5,780 nt of DNA from a virus (IMGVR_UViG_3300017613_000835:1-5780); one strand, 5' to 3'; counted from the stretch's first letter, positions 1 through 5,780 are shown. Program-made: numbers and translations. The notes: generated by a model from the sequence alone, not told the origin.

Positions 1-40
1 AAGAGGTGATATAGATGGCAAGAAATATCAGAAGACCTAG
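1..40 (+). CDS. D: 3' end of the external scaffolding protein D gene (wrap-around duplicate of 5660..5699, partial)
   Basis: Codons from nt 2 read RGDIDGKKYQKT then TAG, identical to the C-terminus of the 5172..5699 ORF. Confidence 0.85.
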   Translation, partial: RGDIDGKKYQKT

Positions 41-86
41 AAGAAAGAAAAATAAGATATATTATGTAGGTGGATATAGAGCTTAA
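15..86 (+). CDS. J: Small basic DNA-binding/packaging protein J (23 aa: MARNIRRPRRKKNKIYYVGGYRA)
   Basis: This ORF is not in the supplied track because it is too short. The ATG at 15 follows AAGAGGTGATATAG, which resembles an extended SD. About 10 of the first 14 residues are R/K. The C-terminal IYYVGGYRA resembles the conserved hydrophobic tail of phiX174 J (...ARLWYVGGQQF) and G4/alpha3 J. It sits immediately after D and before F, as in phiX174, and overlaps the D 3' end by 26 nt in another frame. Confidence 0.85.
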   Translation: MARNIRRPRRKKNKIYYVGGYRA

Positions 87-101
87 AAAGGAGTAAAAAT
101 A

Positions 102-281
102 ATGGTAAAAACAAAAAAAGGATTATTCGGTGTAGTATTCGGCTTTATAGTAGGAATAGCATCAATATTCTTAGTAAAAACAGGAGTATTAGACAAAGAA
201 ACAGTAGATTCAGTAGTAAAAGAAGCAGACTTCTTCATTAATCAATTAGATGAAAGGAGCGATAAAAGATATGGACGATAA
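102..281 (+). CDS. 59-aa small membrane protein (N-terminal single TM helix, charged C-terminal tail); candidate lysis protein
   Basis: Not in the supplied track. AAAAAGGAG lies upstream (GGAG 90-93), with spacing like that of the H and J genes. Translation: MVKTKKGLFGVVFGFIVGIASIFLVKTGVLDKETVDSVVKEADFFINQLDERSDKRYGR. It has a basic N-terminus, a hydrophobic stretch of about 19 residues (GLFGVVFGFIVGIASIFLV), and a charged tail. Codon usage matches the rest of the genome. Confidence 0.62.
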   Translation: MVKTKKGLFGVVFGFIVGIASIFLVKTGVLDKETVDSVVKEADFFINQLDERSDKRYGR

Positions 282-414
282 ATGGTATTATTATGATGAA
301 GTAGCAGAAGACCAAAAGTTATATGTATATTACGATAAGGAATTATCAGAACAAAAAGTAAATAGAGAAATAAAGAAAGAGGTGAAACATGGAATTAAAC
401 AGAACCACATATAG
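271..414 (+). CDS. Hypothetical 47-aa Tyr-rich acidic protein (MDDKWYYYDEVAEDQKLYVYYDKELSEQKVNREIKKEVKHGIKQNHI)
   Basis: This is the only open frame spanning the J-F gap after the TM ORF. It overlaps the TM ORF by 11 nt and the F start by 26 nt. The GGAG at 256-259 is 15 nt before the ATG, farther than for the other genes, which weakens the call. Confidence 0.3.
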   Translation: MDDKWYYYDEVAEDQKLYVYYDKELSEQKVNREIKKEVKHGIKQNHI

Positions 415-1663
415 TCTAGACCACCACTCGTTTAACGTCGGTGCAATAGGCTCCCTACAAACTGTCTCTTGTGTGCCAGTCGTAGCAGGTGATTCAATGC
501 AGATGGATTTTCAAGGATTGTTTAGATTAGCACCATTAGTAAGAAATTTATATTTAGATGCAAAGTTAGATTTGTTTGCGTTCTATGTACCATACAGACA
601 TATATATGGAGATGATTGGACAGCATTCATTAAAGATGGAGTAGATGAAGCAACAACATTCGGTACATATACAGCAACAGATGTTATAAGATGTACAGGA
701 GCATACCAAACAGGTACAATACCAAAATGGAATATAGCAAGTTATGCAAGAATATGGAATAGATACTTTAGACACCCAACAGATGCAAATCAGATAGATG
801 ATGACCATTTAAAAGATACAGGAGATTCAGATATAGCACAATATGGTATGAAATGCACATATTTAAAAAGAATATGGAATACAGGAGTAGATGAAGAATT
901 AGTAGATGCAGACCATATATTAGATACAACAGCAGATAAGTTAGATTTATTTGATTTAGTACAGACACAAAATAGGTTAGAAACAGAAAGACAAAGAGAA
1001 TGGTTTGGACAAAGATACGCAGATGTAATGCGTAATGCATTCGGTACAAACGTAAATATAGATGCAGATGAAAGACCAGAGTTAATAATGAGAACAAGTC
1101 AATGGTTATCAGGACATGATGTAGATGGAACAGCATCAGACAATTTAGGTAAGTATGCAGGTAAAGCTTATGGAGTAGGTGAATTATCATTTCCAATGAA
1201 ATTCTTCCCAGAGCATGGTAGTTTATGGTTAATGGCATTAATTAGATTCCCAAGTATACCAAACTACGAAAAACATTATTTATATAGTCAAGCAGAGCCA
1301 AGTTATAAAGTAATAGCAGGTGACCCAGATGTAGTAGCAAATGAACCGCCAATAGTATTAGATGTAGCAGATTATATAGAAAATGCAACATGTAATGATG
1401 CAGGATTAATACCTTATGCACAATGGTATAGAGAGCATCCAAGTTATGTTCATGACAAGTATAGAGATGTAACAGGACATCCGTTTATAAGTAAAGTAAT
1501 AGCAACAGCAGATGATAGTAGATATATTACTGCAGGAGAATATGACAATATATTCCAAACAGAGGCATTAAAACATTGGAATTTACAAGGTCATATAGGA
1601 TTAACAGCAAAAAGAGTTATACCAGACCCTAAAACTAGTATATTCGCAGGTGTGGATAGATAA
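389..1663 (+). CDS. F: Major capsid protein F (phiX174 F type, 424 aa)
   Basis: AAGAGGTGA SD lies at 377-385. The ORF is colinear over its whole length with phiX174 F as I recall it (about 426 aa). Matching blocks: VVAGDSMQMDF...FRLAPLVR vs VIAGDSFEMDA...LRLSPLRR; FAFYVPYRHIYGDDWTAFIKDGV vs FTFYVPHRHVYGEQWIKFMKDGV; DADERPELIMRTSQWLSGHDVDGT vs DADNRPLLVMRSNLWASGYDVDGT; FFPEHGSLWLMALIRFP vs FVPEHGTMFTLALVRFP; AQWYREHPSYV vs GQWYRYAPSYV. It lacks the large insertion loop of gokushovirus VP1. Confidence 0.97.
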   Translation: MELNRTTYSLDHHSFNVGAIGSLQTVSCVPVVAGDSMQMDFQGLFRLAPLVRNLYLDAKLDLFAFYVPYRHIYGDDWTAFIKDGVDEATTFGTYTATDVIRCTGAYQTGTIPKWNIASYARIWNRYFRHPTDANQIDDDHLKDTGDSDIAQYGMKCTYLKRIWNTGVDEELVDADHILDTTADKLDLFDLVQTQNRLETERQREWFGQRYADVMRNAFGTNVNIDADERPELIMRTSQWLSGHDVDGTASDNLGKYAGKAYGVGELSFPMKFFPEHGSLWLMALIRFPSIPNYEKHYLYSQAEPSYKVIAGDPDVVANEPPIVLDVADYIENATCNDAGLIPYAQWYREHPSYVHDKYRDVTGHPFISKVIATADDSRYITAGEYDNIFQTEALKHWNLQGHIGLTAKRVIPDPKTSIFAGVDR

Positions 1664-1676
1664 GAAAGGATAAAAA

Positions 1677-1904
1677 ATGACAGAACCAATAAATGAATTA
1701 AAGGAATTTAAAACAGTAAACGAAATAACAGAAGAAGTATATGATAGGTATAAATCAGGAACAGATGTAGATTATATAGATTTAAAACCAGTAGAAAAGT
1801 ATCAATGGAAAGAAGCAACAAAAGATATGTTAATATCAAAAGAATTAGTGTATGATTATGAAAATAAAAAAATAGATATATTATTTGGAGAAAAGGTAAT
1901 ATAA
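1677..1904 (+). CDS. Hypothetical 75-aa acidic protein in the F-G gap
   Basis: GAAAGGA SD lies 6 nt upstream of the ATG. Codon usage is genome-typical. The ORF fills a position that is non-coding in phiX174. I recognise no motif. Confidence 0.65.
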   Translation: MTEPINELKEFKTVNEITEEVYDRYKSGTDVDYIDLKPVEKYQWKEATKDMLISKELVYDYENKKIDILFGEKVI

Positions 1905-1917
1905 GAAAGGAGTAAAA

Positions 1918-2538
1918 ATGTTACAACCAAATTTAAGAGGAAGTATGGCGCATAATATACATGCGGCACCAGTCGATTTTTTAACAGCAGATTTAGCGTT
2001 AATTGATAGTGATATATATAGTAAAACATATTTACCATATGCGTATACTGCAACAGTAGCAGATGATAGTGATGGTGTATCATATACAATAGCAACAGCT
2101 GCTCAAGCAATAGCAGATGATCAAAAAGTAGCATTAGGATTATATCTATCAGCAGATAATGAAAAAGGAAATTTAGTATTTAATTTACAAGGTTCAGTTT
2201 CAGCAAGATATTCAGCAAATGATGTTAGTACATTCTTTATATTCGGTAGGAGAGATGGAGCAGTAACAAGTACAAAAGCAGGAACAGCAAATCAATTAGG
2301 TAGAAATATTATATTACCATTAGATACAATAAGTCAAGATGATGGATTAGTATTTGCATCAATTAATCAAAGTATAATAATACAATGTGATACAACAGAT
2401 ACAGCAGTAGCATATTGTTTTGCATTAGTAATGGAAAACGAAACTGGTGGAGCAGTTACAGCAAAAATGGAATCAACACTAAGTATGCAGAAATATAGTT
2501 GGATAGAACAAACACATGATCCAGCTTATTCAGTATAG
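1918..2538 (+). CDS. Putative major spike protein (G-position ORF, 206 aa)
   Basis: GAAAGGAG SD lies upstream. The ORF sits between F and H exactly where phiX174 G (175 aa) lies. Its composition is rich in Ala/Thr/Ser/Asp/Val and poor in Lys/Glu, unlike the rest of the proteome and consistent with a beta-rich surface protein. I see no sequence similarity to phiX G by eye, so the function rests on synteny only. Confidence 0.55.
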   Translation: MLQPNLRGSMAHNIHAAPVDFLTADLALIDSDIYSKTYLPYAYTATVADDSDGVSYTIATAAQAIADDQKVALGLYLSADNEKGNLVFNLQGSVSARYSANDVSTFFIFGRRDGAVTSTKAGTANQLGRNIILPLDTISQDDGLVFASINQSIIIQCDTTDTAVAYCFALVMENETGGAVTAKMESTLSMQKYSWIEQTHDPAYSV

Positions 2539-2540
2539 AA

Positions 2541-2558
2541 ATATCGTTAGCACGATAT
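2541..2558 (+). promoter_or_regulatory. Intergenic stem-loop 1 (ATATCGT / tagc / ACGATAT)
   Basis: A perfect 7-bp inverted repeat with a 4-nt loop lies 3 nt after the G-position stop codon, in the only clear non-coding gap of the genome. Confidence 0.6.
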
Positions 2559-2563
2559 AGATA

Positions 2564-2594
2564 AACCTGGAGAGTTTACAAGGCTCTCCAGGTT
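2564..2594 (+). promoter_or_regulatory. Intergenic stem-loop 2 (AACCTGGAGAG / tttacaagg / CTCTCCAGGTT); candidate leaky terminator, mRNA stabiliser or minus-strand origin
   Basis: A perfect 11-bp inverted repeat with a 9-nt loop. It is locally much more G+C-rich than its surroundings. No T-tract follows it; it abuts the H-gene SD, so it is not a canonical intrinsic terminator. Confidence 0.65.
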
Positions 2595-2610
2595 GAAAGG
2601 AGTAATAACA

Positions 2611-3192
2611 ATGAACCCAGCAGTATTAGCATCATTAATTAAAGCAGGTGGAGATATAGCATCAACAGGAATAAATAAGATAACTGGAGTACCAACACCA
2701 AAAGGTGCATTTACACCGGGTGCAAAAGAAGGTAGTCAATATAGACAATTTTTAAATAAAGCTTATCCAGGTACAACAGTTTGGGAACAAATAGGTGCAT
2801 CAGGTGCAGGAACAGCAGGAGCAATAGGCTCAGGACATATGTCTAGTAGAGTGCAACAACAAGCTGTAGATATACAGAAAAAGAAAATGTTTGCAGAATT
2901 AGCAAATATAACAGCAAATACAGCAAAAACGTATCAAGATACAAAATTAGCAAAGAAAGTAACAGATAAAACAGAAGAAGAAAAACAAATGACACAAAAA
3001 GAAAATAGAATGAAAGAACCATTATTAGATGCACAATTAACAAGTGAAAGAGGTAGAAATCCAATGACTTATATGCAACATATAGCTGAAGGATTAGAGA
3101 GAAAAAAGATAGATTTTATAAATAAAGTTGGTGGATATTTATCAGATAGAAATATAAAAAAAATAAGAAAAAGAGGTTTGAGAAAAAATTAA
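2611..3192 (+). CDS. H: DNA pilot (minor spike) protein H homologue, short form (193 aa)
   Basis: The ATG at 2611 is preceded by GAAAGGAG (2595-2602). The track start at 2593 is a TTG lying inside the hairpin. The Gly/Ala-rich hydrophobic N-terminus MNPAVLASLIKAGGDIASTG resembles phiX H MFGAIAGGIASALAGG. YRQFLNKAYPGTTVWEQIGASGAG matches phiX [26 protein letters not shown]. A Gln/Lys/Glu-rich predicted coiled coil follows. The position between G and A matches phiX174. Confidence 0.85.
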   Translation: MNPAVLASLIKAGGDIASTGINKITGVPTPKGAFTPGAKEGSQYRQFLNKAYPGTTVWEQIGASGAGTAGAIGSGHMSSRVQQQAVDIQKKKMFAELANITANTAKTYQDTKLAKKVTDKTEEEKQMTQKENRMKEPLLDAQLTSERGRNPMTYMQHIAEGLERKKIDFINKVGGYLSDRNIKKIRKRGLRKN

Positions 3193-4704
3193 ATGTATAT
3201 GTTAAAAAAGGAAATAAAAGTGTCAGATTTATTATTTGATAAAGAATATAGATTAATAAACGCACTAAAAAGTAGAATAAGAGCATTAGAATATCAATGG
3301 AAAATAGGTAAAGATAAGTGTATAGTAACAGATAAATTAGAAGATAAATTAGATGTAGAGTTGGATTGTATATATAGTTATATCCGTCTAGTTAATAACT
3401 CCTTAAAAGTAAACAGTGAAGATAATTATAAAAAAGCTTATAAATATTACAAAGAATTACCAAAAACAATAAAAGAACATTCAGAAAAGTTGTTAGGTTA
3501 TTATTATGTAAGAAGAAATACAGATTATGATAAATTAGAAGAGCTTAAAAAAACAAAAAAAATATATTTGACTATGAAGTGGAAAACTGATAAAATAGAT
3601 AAAATGATAAAAAAAGAAGAAATGAGAGTTAAATATATGGAAAATTATAAGAAAATGTTAAAAAGTTCATGTTTAAAAGCAAGAAAATATGAATTACAAA
3701 GTAGGTTAATGTATGAAATGCAACAAAGAGTAAACGAAGGTTGGTATATAATATTTAATACACTAACAGTAAACAGTTTCAATATAAAAAATGTATTTGA
3801 TAATGGAAGTAAAGGATTTATGAAATATGTAAGAAAAGTAGATAGAGAAGTAGGAAGAAAGATATATGGTAAGTTTAGAGATATACCAGATAATGCAGAA
3901 TATCATAGATATTTTGGAGTAGTAGAAAGAGGTAGTGAAACAGGTAGATTACATATACACGTTATTCATATGGTAAAAGAACTCCCAGAGGGATGTTATG
4001 ATATGAATAGAGGAAAGCAAATACCAAGCAATAGAGAAATATCAAGATTCAAAAAATATTGGGAATATGGATTCAGTTCTCCTATAGCAGTAAGATTTAA
4101 TAGCAGTGATGCATATGGTAAGTTAGGATGGCGAGTGCCATGTAAAATGGAAGAAGATGGAAATTATAGTATAGTAGATAATGGAAGTGTAGATAAAGTA
4201 GTAGGATATATGAGTAAATATATCAATAAAGAGTTAGAAAAAGAGAAAGGAGATGAAATACCATGGAGAACGAGAATGACAAGAGGATTAGGAATGAAGA
4301 TAGTAAAGAAAATAGTACAGTCAATGACAGCGAAAGAATTAATAATGATAATGTCGTTGAAAAGGAACAAAAGGATAAAGTTGAAGGACAAAGAGATACC
4401 AATGAGCTTGTTAAGGAAAGAAGCGATAAAGATATATATGATGACGAAGAAAGAGAAAGAGAATTTGAAAGAAAATATGGTAAAAATAAAGCCACGGAAA
4501 GGTATCTTAGAAGTTATAAGGGATATAATAAGAATGAAAAAGGAGTACAGCAAAGCGAATTATACAGATATAAAGACTCTGAATATGAGAAAGATGGATG
4601 GATTTAAATTAGTAAATAAAATAAAGAAAATAGAAAAAGAGATGTTCGGAGAAAATATAATAAAGTTAGATGTATTAGGAACAACAATAGATAGTATTGT
4701 ATAA
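3193..4704 (+). CDS. A: Replication initiation protein A (HUH rolling-circle endonuclease, 503 aa)
   Basis: The ATG directly abuts the H stop codon. RCR motif I is FNTLTV (3754-3771), motif II (HUH) is GRLHIHVIH (HIH at 3952-3960), and motif III with two Tyr is VVGYMSKYINK (Tyr codons 4207-4209 and 4219-4221, residues 339/343, versus 343/347 in phiX A). Blocks matching phiX A as recalled: EGWYIIFNTLT vs DGWFIVFDTLT; TGRLHIHVIHMVKELPEG vs NGRLHFHAVHFMRTLPTG; WEYGFSSPIAVRF vs WPYGYSMPIAVRY; RTRMTRGLGMKIV vs RIRMSRNFGMKML. The N-terminal ~175 aa are Lys-rich and I cannot align them by eye. Confidence 0.95.
   Translation: MYMLKKEIKVSDLLFDKEYRLINALKSRIRALEYQWKIGKDKCIVTDKLEDKLDVELDCIYSYIRLVNNSLKVNSEDNYKKAYKYYKELPKTIKEHSEKLLGYYYVRRNTDYDKLEELKKTKKIYLTMKWKTDKIDKMIKKEEMRVKYMENYKKMLKSSCLKARKYELQSRLMYEMQQRVNEGWYIIFNTLTVNSFNIKNVFDNGSKGFMKYVRKVDREVGRKIYGKFRDIPDNAEYHRYFGVVERGSETGRLHIHVIHMVKELPEGCYDMNRGKQIPSNREISRFKKYWEYGFSSPIAVRFNSSDAYGKLGWRVPCKMEEDGNYSIVDNGSVDKVVGYMSKYINKELEKEKGDEIPWRTRMTRGLGMKIVKKIVQSMTAKELIMIMSLKRNKRIKLKDKEIPMSLLRKEAIKIYMMTKKEKENLKENMVKIKPRKGILEVIRDIIRMKKEYSKANYTDIKTLNMRKMDGFKLVNKIKKIEKEMFGENIIKLDVLGTTIDSIV
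4263..4607 (+). CDS. B: Internal scaffolding protein B-like ORF, overprinted inside gene A in the +2 frame (114 aa)
   Basis: AAAGGAG at 4246-4252 lies 10 nt before the ATG, and this SD is embedded in A coding sequence. The ORF starts about 14 codons after the catalytic Tyr motif of A and ends 97 nt before the A stop, closely mirroring phiX174 B (120 aa, nested in A, ending 85 nt before the A stop). The protein is highly charged. Its aromatic C-terminus SELYRYKDSEYEKDGWI resembles phiX B AEFYRFHDAEVNTFGYF. Caveat: the region is purine-rich, so open frames arise more easily here. Confidence 0.7.
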   Translation: MENENDKRIRNEDSKENSTVNDSERINNDNVVEKEQKDKVEGQRDTNELVKERSDKDIYDDEEREREFERKYGKNKATERYLRSYKGYNKNEKGVQQSELYRYKDSEYEKDGWI

Positions 4705-4710
4705 GGAGAG

Positions 4711-4962
4711 ATGATGCTTAATGAATTAAATATGATGGTAATACATATGAAAGTAATAGGAGAAATATTAAGTTATGGACAAATATTAGAAAATACAAAA
4801 GAATTAATAGTAGATGGAGTATTTAGAGTAGAAAGAATAGTAGATGAAATAATGATGTATATAGAATTAAATCATGATGAAAGATTAAAATATATGTGTA
4901 GTGAAAGGAATAGGAAATTATATGATACAAAAAATATTAGCGTTAGCATTAAAATTAAGTAG
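4711..4962 (+). CDS. Hypothetical 83-aa protein at the gene C position (possible DNA maturation/packaging factor)
   Basis: The ORF begins just after the A stop codon. AAGGAGAG at 4703-4710 is very close to the ATG at 4711, so the second ATG at 4714 has more typical spacing. Size and position match phiX174 C (86 aa), but I see no sequence similarity by eye. Confidence 0.5.
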   Translation: MMLNELNMMVIHMKVIGEILSYGQILENTKELIVDGVFRVERIVDEIMMYIELNHDERLKYMCSERNRKLYDTKNISVSIKIK

Positions 4963-5080
4963 GTTATATAGCTTATTCCATTACTACTTAGATGAAGAAG
5001 AAGAAAAAATGTTAAAAGAAGAAATAAAAGAAATTAAAAAGGATATAGAAAAAATAAAACAAGCAATTAAAGAGATATAG
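4922..5080 (+). CDS. Hypothetical 52-aa protein overlapping the 3' end of the C-position ORF (MIQKILALALKLSRLYSLFHYYLDEEEEKMLKEEIKEIKKDIEKIKQAIKEI)
   Basis: Not in the supplied track. A weak SD (AGGA at 4912-4915) lies 6 nt before the ATG. The N-terminal half is amphipathic/hydrophobic and the C-terminal half is a charged heptad-like helix. The stop codon lies immediately before the SD of the next small ORF, so with this ORF the C-D interval becomes fully coding. Confidence 0.35.
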   Translation: MIQKILALALKLSRLYSLFHYYLDEEEEKMLKEEIKEIKKDIEKIKQAIKEI

Positions 5081-5090
5081 AAAGGAGAGT

Positions 5091-5171
5091 ATGCTTGATA
5101 TAGTAACAATATTAGTGTTATTAGCAATATTCAATGAATTAAAAGATAAGAAAAATAGAAAGGATAGATAA
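5091..5171 (+). CDS. Possible 26-aa hydrophobic micropeptide (MLDIVTILVLLAIFNELKDKKNRKDR), translationally coupled to D
   Basis: AAAGGAGAGT lies immediately upstream, with short spacing. The TAA stop is directly followed by the D ATG (TAAATG). The hydrophobic core IVTILVLLAIF is short for a TM helix. The same DNA carries the ori-like motif, so the ORF may be incidental. Confidence 0.25.
   Translation: MLDIVTILVLLAIFNELKDKKNRKDR
5094..5115 (+). promoter_or_regulatory. Candidate viral-strand (+) origin / Rep nick site, phiX174-ori-like
   Basis: CTTGATATAGTAACAATATTAG compares with the phiX174 origin CAACTTG^ATATTAATAACACTATAGACCAC. The 8-mer CTTGATAT spanning the gpA cleavage site is exact, and TAACA and TAT(T)AG follow with two 1-nt indels. 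This is the only CTTGA I found in the window. The predicted nick lies between G5097 and A5098. Confidence 0.35.
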
Positions 5172-5699
5172 ATGGGTCTAAATTACGAAGTAGCAAAAGG
5201 TACAATGAATTTAATAGCAAATCAGTGTAAAGAAGGATGGTTAGAAACATGTTGTATAACAAAAGACGACTTTGATAAATTAACAGCACCAGTATGTTGG
5301 TTATCAGTAGATAGAAATAGAGTAACACAAACATTCTTCAGTTTATTGTACGGAACAGTAGATGCAATAGGAATACCTAGATTCACGTTACCAGCAGAGT
5401 ATATAGCATCAGCAATATCAGTTTATATAGACCCAGTAAACGTGTTAGTAGCATGTAGATTCTTTGAAAAAGTACCTACAGCAGAAGGATTAGGTAGAGG
5501 AGTAGATAACATAGAAAATGTAACGTCAAAACAGTTGTTTGGATTAGTAGTACAGTTAGTAGCAGATGTAGAAAATAGTAATGCAAGATGTTTATTCGAG
5601 AAAAAAACAGGATTAGTAGTTAGTAGGACAAAAAGAATAGAAATGTTAGAAAAAAAGAAAAGAGGTGATATAGATGGCAAGAAATATCAGAAGACCTAG
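5172..5699 (+). CDS. D: External scaffolding protein D (175 aa)
   Basis: GAAAGGA SD lies 7 nt upstream. Matches to phiX174 D as recalled: ITKDDFDKLTAPVCWLSVDRNR vs LTEDDFDFLTSNKVWIATDRSR, and LYGTVDAIGIPRFTLPAEYIASAISVYIDPVNVLVAC vs VYGTLDFVGYPRFPAPVEFIAAVIAYYVHPVNIQTAC. It is longer than phiX D (152 aa) because of a Lys-rich C-terminal extension that overlaps the J start. Confidence 0.93.
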   Translation: MGLNYEVAKGTMNLIANQCKEGWLETCCITKDDFDKLTAPVCWLSVDRNRVTQTFFSLLYGTVDAIGIPRFTLPAEYIASAISVYIDPVNVLVACRFFEKVPTAEGLGRGVDNIENVTSKQLFGLVVQLVADVENSNARCLFEKKTGLVVSRTKRIEMLEKKKRGDIDGKKYQKT

Positions 5700-5780
5700 A
5701 AGAAAGAAAAATAAGATATATTATGTAGGTGGATATAGAGCTTAAAAAGGAGTAAAAATAATGGTAAAAACAAAAAAAGG
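5660..5780. repeat. Terminal direct overlap, copy 2 (circular closure of the contig)
   Basis: Identical to nt 1-121. It also contains the first 20 nt (5761-5780) of the 59-aa TM ORF. Confidence 0.97.
5674..5745 (+). CDS. J: Protein J gene, second copy created by the terminal overlap (same gene as 15..86)
   Basis: Identical sequence to 15..86, offset by 5,659 nt. Confidence 0.85.
   Translation: MARNIRRPRRKKNKIYYVGGYRA

Follow-up and report, generated by a model that had tools for sequence, protein, structure and literature searches.

A probable pequeñovirus-like microvirus genome with the phiX174 core gene set and an A-rich, C-poor strand

Kirchberger et al. 2022 united the Bullavirinae, Klebsiella prophages, and metagenome-assembled genomes of pequeñoviruses in Family 1 (Suborder I), and gave it two hallmarks, the spike and an external scaffold that is absent from other suborders (PMC9239249). 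The pequeñoviruses, a candidate genus, are credited, in the papers that cite Bryson et al. 2015 (PMC9865509, PMC9239249), to methane-seep sediment; GenBank records of isolates from the Eel River Basin (ERB) annotate a 'putative external scaffolding protein' and a 'putative minor spike protein', and the record of a microvirus from the gut of Ciona likewise annotates an external scaffolding protein. Vibrio phage vB_VpaM_PG19 (OM055665), cultured on Vibrio parahaemolyticus, carries A, nested B, D, F, and H (PMC9431446), so the two-scaffold plan was already known outside the Enterobacteria. Here we analyze the viral contig IMGVR_UViG_3300017613_000835:1-5780 (the window, that is, the whole stretch of 5,780 nucleotides [nt]), and conclude that it very probably represents an uncultured microvirus of the pequeñovirus-like branch of Family 1, or Bullavirinae in the broad sense, which carries the full phiX174 core and has ERB pequeñovirus c22476 (NC_026665 / KP087957) as its nearest known relative.

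Genome layout, placement and core genes

The two ends of the window are identical over 121 nt (positions 1-121 and 5660-5780, 100% identity, spacing 5,659 nt), and the contig is therefore a 5,659-nt circle with an assembly overlap. Circularity and size fit a circular single-stranded DNA (ssDNA) genome of about 5-6 kb, and are known here from the assembly rather than from virion DNA. All of the family-supported genes lie on the plus strand in the order J, F, G, H, A (with B nested in another frame), C slot, D, and the open reading frames (ORFs) on the minus strand, which are rich in Leu, Phe, and Ile, are artefacts of complementing an A-rich strand. A preliminary description of this sequence had proposed a 5,659-nt circle with the single-strand order A(B nested)-C position-D-J-F-G position-H, and the terminal repeat together with the ORF and family searches confirms it. 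With the bacterial code, genes free of frameshifts cover 97.7% of the circle, and the interval 2539-2610 is the only non-coding gap longer than 15 nt.

A blastn search of 50,697 phage records finds no near-identical genome; the only match is c22476, at 70% over 39% of the genome, and no record of the Bullavirinae proper is matched at the nucleotide level (F 33-37% and A 23-26% identical). The F protein is 60% identical to that of c22476, 48, 46, and 41% to those of other ERB isolates, 44% to that of the Ciona-gut microvirus, and 37, 33, and 36% to those of phiX174, G4, and alpha3, so that it is nearer to the ERB isolates than to the enterobacterial microviruses, as expected of a pequeñovirus. 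In a collection of 5.8 billion proteins F has an exact copy (JGI, two contigs), followed by c22476 (run SRR100608) and then by about 250 metagenomic F proteins at 44-54% identity. A neighbour-joining tree of 36 F proteins, with gokushoviruses as outgroup, groups the genome with c22476 (98% bootstrap) inside a radiation that also contains IMG/VR genomes, the Ciona virus, and further ERB isolates, and keeps the pair separate from phiX174, G4, and alpha3. The topology agrees with a pequeñovirus-like radiation that would be sister to the Bullavirinae, but its deep nodes are weak, with bootstrap values of 20-47%.

The genome is certainly a different species from c22476 and probably a new genus within a known group. 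At F identities of 41-60%, the ERB group spans far more than a single genus. The preliminary description had seen a deeply diverged lineage; the distance from phiX174, G4, and alpha3 stands, both in F identity and in the F tree, where the genome is not nested among them, but the novelty of the lineage does not, since it is sister to c22476, which dates from 2015. What the genome adds is a second well-resolved representative of the most A-rich branch of the phiX-like radiation. The gene content is that of Family 1: F, D, G (by fold), nested B, an HUH-type A with an origin-like site, J, and H are all present. Membership of the Bullavirinae proper is contradicted by the F tree, in which the genome falls within none of the named genera, and by the lack of E, K, and C homologs.

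Support for the core genes (Table 1) comes from Pfam and PHROG scans, phmmer, and direct alignment with phiX174, G4, and alpha3. F aligns end to end with phiX174 F (residues 5-419) without a gokushovirus-type insertion, and is thus of the compact type of about 425 amino acids that had been proposed, rather than a gokushovirus VP1. In A the HUH motif reads GRLHIHVIH and the two-tyrosine motif GYMSKYINK (FYVAKYVNK in phiX174), and H254, H256, Y339, K342, and Y343 are invariant when the protein is aligned with the A proteins of phiX174, G4, and alpha3. D scores 68 bits against a gpD cut-off of 25 and is 37% identical to phiX174 D. B is matched by phmmer to the B proteins of alpha3 (2.5e-7), phiX174 (8e-4), and G4 (1.4e-3), and its C-terminus, VQQSELYRYKDSEYEKDGWI, aligns with those of G4 (VQPTEFYRFNDHEINKYGYF) and alpha3. 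H matches the H proteins of 47 genomes, including phiX174 (1.4e-5), G4, and alpha3, and is shorter than phiX174 H (193 versus 328 amino acids); its start is most likely the ATG at 2611, which has the Shine-Dalgarno (SD) sequence AAGGAG 8 nt before it, rather than the TTG at 2593 where the mechanical ORF begins. J overlaps the end of D by 26 nt, has K or R at nine of its 23 residues, and ends in YYVGGYRA (WYVGGQQF in phiX174); it aligns with the J proteins of phiX174, G4, and alpha3 (…RLWYVGGxQF/Y), and its phmmer matches are the J proteins of relatives, where the equivalent ORFs are unannotated, and of alpha3-like phages.

The resemblance to phiX174 that had been noted by eye for F, A, D, and H and for the C-termini of J and B is therefore supported in each case by profile searches or direct comparison. 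D and B match the profiles of their families and J aligns with its counterparts, which keeps the two-scaffold interpretation in place, and the picture of a complete phiX174-plan microvirus with two scaffolds, J, and a spike holds by homology, and by fold for the spike. Among the earlier gene calls the core set is retained, whereas the H start most likely moves from 2593 to 2611 and six further small ORFs are recognized.

Table 1. Features of the 5,780-nt window (positions counted from its first nucleotide; aa, amino acids; SD, Shine-Dalgarno sequence)
Feature	Coordinates	Strand	Description and evidence
Terminal direct repeat	1-121	.	Copy of 5660-5780; assembly overlap of the 5,659-nt circle
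J	15-86 (= 5674-5745)	+	DNA-packaging protein, basic, 23 aa, MARNIRRPRRKKNKIYYVGGYRA; SD GAGGTGAT; phmmer and alignment
o59	102-281	+	59 aa, basic N-terminus, one transmembrane helix (residues 7-25), short tail; SD AAGGAG
o47	271-414	+	47 aa (mechanical ORF 250-414); preceded by GAAAGGAG
F	389-1663	+	Major capsid protein, 424 aa, compact phiX type; Pfam Phage_F 7e-57, PHROG 514 1e-80
o75	1677-1904	+	75 aa, acidic, between F and G; SD AAGGA
G	1918-2538	+	Predicted major spike protein homolog, 206 aa, all-beta jelly roll; AlphaFold2 model and Foldseek
Two stable hairpins	2541-2558 and 2564-2594 (12-bp stem)	+	G-H gap; ssDNA fold
H	2611-3192	+	DNA pilot protein, 193 aa; Pfam Microvir_H 1.8e-4, phmmer
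A	3193-4704	+	HUH rolling-circle replication initiator, 503 aa; PHROG 713 3e-82, Phage_GPA 7e-9
Putative viral-strand origin	3382-3402	+	ATCCGTCTAGTTAATAACTCC, inside A; A-protein alignment to the phiX174 origin core CAACTTGATATTAATAACAC
B	4263-4607	+	Internal scaffold of 114 aa, encoded within A in a different frame; PHROG 1473 2.4e-7, Pfam Phage_B 1.4e-5
C-slot ORF	4711-4962	+	83 aa, orphan; shares only position and size with phiX174 C (86 aa)
o52	4922-5080	+	52 aa from ATG 4922 (mechanical start GTG 4901); conserved in c22476; GAAAGGA at 4903
o26	5091-5171	+	26 aa, MLDIVTILVLLAIFNELKDKKNRKDR, hydrophobic then basic tail; SD AGAAAGGAG
D	5172-5699	+	External scaffolding protein, 175 aa; Pfam gpD 8.3e-19, PHROG 1386 7e-43

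The G-slot protein, the origin and the small genes

Neither Pfam nor PHROG assigns the G-slot protein to a family, and an hhalign comparison of its 90-member family profile with an alignment of the phiX174, G4, and alpha3 G proteins shows no similarity (probability 0.3%). The family comprises 140 representatives of 50%-identity clusters, nearly all of 200-220 amino acids, and its deposited homologs are all labelled 'hypothetical protein'. An AlphaFold2 model built on the family alignment is all-beta, with a predicted local distance difference test score (pLDDT) of 91.8 and a predicted template-modelling score of 0.88. When this model is searched against the PDB with Foldseek, the top five matches are G chains of the Bullavirinae (phiX174 2bpa_2, Salmonella phage PJNS002, PJNS001, alpha3 1m06_G, and G4 1gff_2) with E-values of 7e-9 to 3e-7 and template-modelling (TM) scores of 0.49-0.61, followed by generic viral jelly rolls at E-values of 3e-4 or higher. 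In BFVD, unnamed proteins of about 200 amino acids lead the matches (top TM score 0.89), and 'Major spike protein G' of coliphage ID204 comes next (6e-8).

The predicted structure thus identifies the 206-residue protein as a true, highly diverged homolog of the G spike. A spike that the preliminary description had named from gene position is in this way raised to a G homolog by structure, though sequence similarity is absent. The G-slot 'hypothetical protein' of the pequeñoviruses would accordingly be the G spike by its modelled fold, one that sequence methods overlook.

The origin-like site inside gene A surfaced only through alignment of the A proteins, a direct search of the genome for the phiX174 origin 20-mer with up to three mismatches having found none. 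We take the phiX174 origin core to be CAACTTGATATTAATAACAC, within gene A and coding QLDINNTIDH. Across an alignment of 60 A proteins, the DNA at these codons keeps the core C[AG]ACT[TA]GATA…TAA in most of the clade. In the genome described here the codons are ATC CGT CTA GTT AAT AAC TCC, and they form the rarest seven-codon window in A and the second rarest genome-wide (CGT is used for 2 of 87 Arg, CTA for 8 of 130 Leu, TCC for 2 of 88 Ser, and ATC for 3 of 129 Ile). The core CGTCTAGTTAATAACTCC (3385-3402) is a 17/18 match to its c22476 counterpart CGTCTTGTTAATAACTCC, in a stretch with a protein identity of only about 35%. These observations point to constraint on the site at the DNA level, consistent with recognition and nicking by A, and the origin core conserved clade-wide inside gene A is a result useful beyond cataloguing.

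The gap between G and H is predicted to fold, as ssDNA, into two hairpins (-16.3 kcal/mol, z = -6.87, with none of 200 shuffles as stable). They are not a canonical terminator, because no T-run follows them, and they could be a complementary-strand origin or an mRNA-stabilising hairpin. The gap is absent from c22476, in which G and H abut.

Six additional small ORFs led by SD sequences occupy the J-F, F-G, and A-D intervals, which in phiX174 are intergenic or hot-spot regions: o59, o47, o75, the C-slot ORF, o52, and o26. The heptamer GAAAGGA is present in eight copies (252, 1664, 1905, 2595, 4245, 4903, 5080, and 5158), all on the plus strand, where 1.5 would be expected and none of 200 shuffles reaches eight. 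Seven of these sites lie 6-12 nt before starts that had already been called (o75, G, H, B, o52, o26, and D) and the eighth precedes the ATG of o47 at 271; the enrichment before starts therefore supports the small ORFs as translated genes. Three copies are present in c22476.

One member of this set is o59, which has no profile match and no homolog in phiX174. ORFs of the same architecture fill the D/J-F slot in eight relatives (L001, which is c22476, 2343-2522; L053 4760-4927; L026 2935-3138; L027 3536-3742; L042 4836-5042; L037 4629-4853; L024 2666-2863; and L023 4543-4767), where phiX174 has only a short spacer between genes. In six of the relatives the protein carries FGCS(H/R)Q as a C-terminal motif, and the transmembrane segments of the o59, c22476, and L053 proteins are visibly alike. 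No overprinted ORF of 25 or more codons is found on D, and hence there is no E equivalent at that place. We also ran iterated hidden Markov models of Bullavirinae C, E, and K, and of each small ORF of the window, against all ORFs of about 60 related genomes; the E, K, and C profiles recruit 29, 22, and 24 genomes, respectively, but never this one, and the models begun from the C-slot ORF, o59, o75, and o26 recruit nothing. Because the genome is without an E homolog, o59 is our best guess for a lysis function, and the recurrence of a membrane-protein gene between J and F in E-less genomes provides a concrete candidate for a new single-gene lysis protein.

Among the remaining small ORFs, o47 overlaps its two neighbours, the end of o59 and the beginning of F, and the 49-residue ORF in its slot in c22476 has no significant similarity to it; o75 is weakly similar to ERB gp7 (63 residues), which holds the same slot (E 0.04 in a tiny database). 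The C-slot ORF has no Pfam or PHROG match, is not reached by the Bullavirinae C profile, and retrieves only itself from the 5.8 billion proteins; it is marginally similar to c22476 gp3 (26% identity, E 6e-4), and its single-sequence AlphaFold2 model is unreliable (pLDDT 46). The 'C position' of the preliminary description is thus retained for position and size but not for homology to C. Across the clade the A-D interval ranges from 27 to 781 nt and holds several unrelated families of small ORFs, and it is an accessory hot-spot rather than a conserved C locus. o52, which has an amphipathic N-terminus, an acidic linker, and a charged helix, aligns without gaps to an unannotated 53-residue ORF of c22476 (1363-1524) at 42% identity and 73% positives (phmmer 3e-10), and blastn shows no nucleotide match to c22476 in this region. 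o26 lies directly upstream of D behind a very strong SD sequence; it has no homolog in our searches and is not found in c22476.

Composition, host and alternative readings

The plus strand is A-rich and C-poor (A.449, T.251, G.201, C.098), with a G+C content (GC) of 29.9%, an A/T ratio of 1.8, and a G/C ratio of 2.05; the skews are positive genome-wide (GC skew +0.14 to +0.63, AT skew +0.18 to +0.39). ATA accounts for 113 of 129 Ile codons (88%), AGA for 70 of 87 Arg, GTA for 90 of 116 Val, and TTA for 106 of 130 Leu. At third positions A makes up 56% and C 5%, compared with 52% T in phiX174 F. The dominance of these four codons and the rarity of C, both pointed out in the preliminary description, prove more extreme than it had stated; the GC of 'roughly one third' was right in being low, though the exact value is somewhat lower. 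An SD sequence (AAGGAG or GAGGTGA, and AAGGA for o75 and D) stands 2-10 nt before every checked start but that of A, as had been proposed for almost every gene. The asymmetry of A over T and of G over C is a property of the strand that host GC alone is insufficient to explain, and the composition suggests a low-GC host, strand-specific bias, or both. The same make-up is found in c22476 (A.434, C.121, GC 30.7%) but not in other relatives, whose GC is 34-57%, and the A-rich state is therefore a feature of a two-genome sublineage.

One patch at the 5' end of F (416-498) is C-rich and uses rare codons, with a third-position GC of about 0.4 against 0.1-0.2 elsewhere in the gene. As a structured element, 416-480 shows no special folding (z = 0.37). 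The patch is without nucleotide conservation in c22476, where similarity starts at 476, and is 78% identical over 68 nt to L027, a relative of higher GC; possible explanations are recombination and a codon ramp.

Several further scans bear on expression and the genetic code. Rfam and tRNA scans of the genome give no match, a sigma-70 promoter scan gives fewer matches than shuffled sequence and is uninformative, and two terminator-like matches both lie on the non-coding strand. The stops of the 13 called genes are eight TAA and five TAG, and the lack of TGA (0 of 13) is not statistically significant. TGG encodes each of the 22 Trp residues and no gene contains TGA in frame, which is compatible with the standard code and argues against a Mollicute host using code 4, with TGA as Trp.

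A low-GC host is plausible, and a low-GC bacterium dependent on SD initiation fits because of the low GC, the A-ending codons, and the extended SD sequences. GAAAGGAG pairs best with a 16S 3' tail ending in CCUCCUUUCU rather than with the E. coli-type CCUCCUUA, and GAAAGGA(G) would pair with a CCUCCUUUC-type tail rather than with the shorter E. coli-type tail, which provides a lead. A G spike and an H pilot protein suggest a diderm host. A scan of 185,579 species genomes for integrated relatives finds none, with nothing above 37% F identity and with phiX174 spike-in swamping the signal. Dozens of bacterial assemblies hold contigs of 5.4-5.5 kb (L066-L144) whose F match is identical to that of phiX174 (37%); they span unrelated phyla, including Clostridium, Bifidobacterium, Helicobacter, and many Rhodobacteraceae, and are almost certainly contamination by the sequencing spike-in rather than prophages. 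Long contigs (17-24 kb) with F relatives were considered as prophages and rejected, the one that was read being a tandem concatemer of a genome of about 6.1 kb. This contig, ERZ25069810 (23.7 kb), holds at least 3.5 tandem copies, with F proteins 44-45% identical to the F described here, and one copy deviates in having an ORF of 180 rather than 183 amino acids and in lacking a 33-residue ORF.

If the virus behaves as phiX174 does, A would nick the replicative form and drive rolling-circle synthesis from the cognate origin within its own gene, at about 3382-3402. Pentamers of F and G would assemble into a procapsid with B inside and D outside, J would enter with the ssDNA and displace B, D would be shed, and H would deliver the DNA into the next cell.

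A number of points weigh against assigning the genome to the pequeñovirus-like branch with a fully phiX174-like core and biology. This life cycle is drawn from homology to phiX174, and the deep nodes of the F tree are weak. Two core genes fall just short of their Pfam cut-offs, B with 26.4 bits for Phage_B against 27 (0.6 bits short) and H with 21.4 bits for Microvir_H against 22.7 (1.3 bits short). The origin-like site departs from the clade consensus, with CTAGTTAA in place of CTTGATA, and the nick position is therefore uncertain. Not even c22476 holds a significant homolog of five of the six small ORFs (o59, o47, o75, o26, and the C-slot ORF), and the lysis role of o59 is argued solely from its position, its architecture, and the absence of E.

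Two alternatives concern what the composition and the divergence mean. A possible but not favoured reading is that the extreme composition is mainly viral, arising from strand-specific mutation or selection on ssDNA or on its purine-rich mRNA, and would say little about host GC. The skews are strong and uniform along the genome, C is depleted at third positions, and relatives from the same clade that span 34-57% GC have very different A/T ratios, so that composition changes fast within the group. Deamination of cytosine in packaged ssDNA raises the share of T, as seen in phiX174, whereas here it is A that is enriched; phage GC also usually tracks host GC, which counts against a purely viral bias. 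The bias is moreover common to two sister genomes with only 60% F identity, which suggests steady selection, for instance in a host type common to both.

Somewhat less likely is the reading of the preliminary description, in which the genome belongs to a previously unknown and deeply diverged phiX-like lineage from a low-GC host using SD initiation, and extends the range of two-scaffold assembly. The low GC with its A-ending codons and the strong, extended SD sites favour it, as does the identity of F, which is only 37% to phiX174 and 60% to the nearest relative of any kind. However, the lineage is sister to a 2015 GenBank genome of the same composition, the clade with its D and H genes and spike is already in the literature and in records, and the cultured Vibrio phage has the same core. 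Nor did the searches yield a host signal: no prophage relative was found among the 185,579 species genomes, and the long contig that was read is a concatemer. The strand asymmetries, too, are beyond the reach of host GC alone. The claim that the two-scaffold system is newly extended beyond its known host range thus fails, being preceded by the c22476 clade, the Family 1 hallmarks, and PG19. With about 250 F relatives and 140 G-slot clusters, the architecture is widespread outside the coliphages, as the literature already has it.

A more specific proposal, which we regard as unlikely, is that the A-rich sublineage of this genome and c22476 has a low-GC, non-gammaproteobacterial host, relies on extended SD pairing, and has replaced E by a single-gene lysis factor of the o59 type. 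If true, no earlier two-scaffold microvirus would be known from beyond the Proteobacteria, and the lysis factor would found a new family of small proteins.

That the assembly is chimeric or defective is very improbable: the codon usage of 416-498 is atypical and resembles L027 more than c22476, but the terminal repeat is perfect, the core genes are intact and collinear with c22476, the coding is nearly continuous without frameshifts, and the same F protein is on record from two contigs. The idea that the genome is an ordinary member of the Bullavirinae proper, possibly a contaminant, owes something to the phiX174 spike-in contigs widespread in public assemblies, but it is refuted by blastn, F identity, and the F tree, as well as by the absence of E, K, and C and a completely different composition, and we give it next to no credence.

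Comparison with named systems

The genome, with the pequeñovirus-like affiliation that we prefer, can be set beside four named systems. One of these is the Gokushovirinae, represented by phiMH2K and by SpV4, whose host is of low GC; they have Microviridae capsid and Rep homologs in common with the genome and form the outgroup of the F tree. They are without D and G, and their VP1 is longer, with an insertion loop (PMC9431446), unlike the genome described here with its D, G, and compact F of 424 residues.

Vibrio phage PG19 differs from the genome in its GC of 41% and in an F that is 35% identical. Its ORF4 (2236-2325) is a J-type peptide ending in YYTGGQRM, and its ORF6 (3689-4192), in the G slot, is matched by hhalign to Bullavirinae G with an E-value of 1.3e-4 and a probability of 54% over 122 columns, but to the pequeñovirus G family with a probability of only 0.3%; it ends in …QPSK, where G has …QPLK. 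The paper describing this phage reports no homolog of the major spike protein gpG (PMC9431446), and the alignment suggests that the 'spike-less' conclusion may be in need of revisiting.

The Bullavirinae proper (phiX174 in Sinsheimervirus, G4 in Gequatrovirus, and alpha3 in Alphatrevirus) have, like the genome, A, nested B, D, J, F, G, and H on one strand in the same order, and the likeness extends to the HUH and YxxKY motifs of A, an origin at homologous codons, the C-terminus of B, the VGG of J, and the fold of G. The genome departs from them in a G that is undetectable by sequence, in having no E, K, or C, in its six extra small ORFs, in an H about 40% shorter, and in a strand that is A-rich where theirs is T-rich. 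Against an enterobacterial host such as theirs, its composition speaks only indirectly.

The closest system is c22476, whose slots are filled as here: A(B)-small ORFs-D-J-transmembrane ORF-small ORF-F-small ORF-G-H. Its D is 51% identical to that of the genome, A about 40%, H 42% over the conserved part, and G 28%, whereas the genome size (6,083 versus 5,659 nt) and the length of H (257 versus 193 residues) differ. NC_026665 splits A into two overlapping coding sequences (5636-101 and 1-1164; gp1 and 'replication initiation protein'); both together align with the single 503-residue A of the genome, which suggests a frameshift in the 2015 assembly. The record leaves J (2258-2329) and the nested B (717-1067) unannotated, and its J, likewise of 23 residues (MRRTRKGTRRKGKKIYYTGGYRA), has the ending KIYYxGGYRA in common with the J described here. 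That the reference record of the pequeñoviruses contains these two genes without annotation is, again, of use beyond the cataloguing of one more genome.

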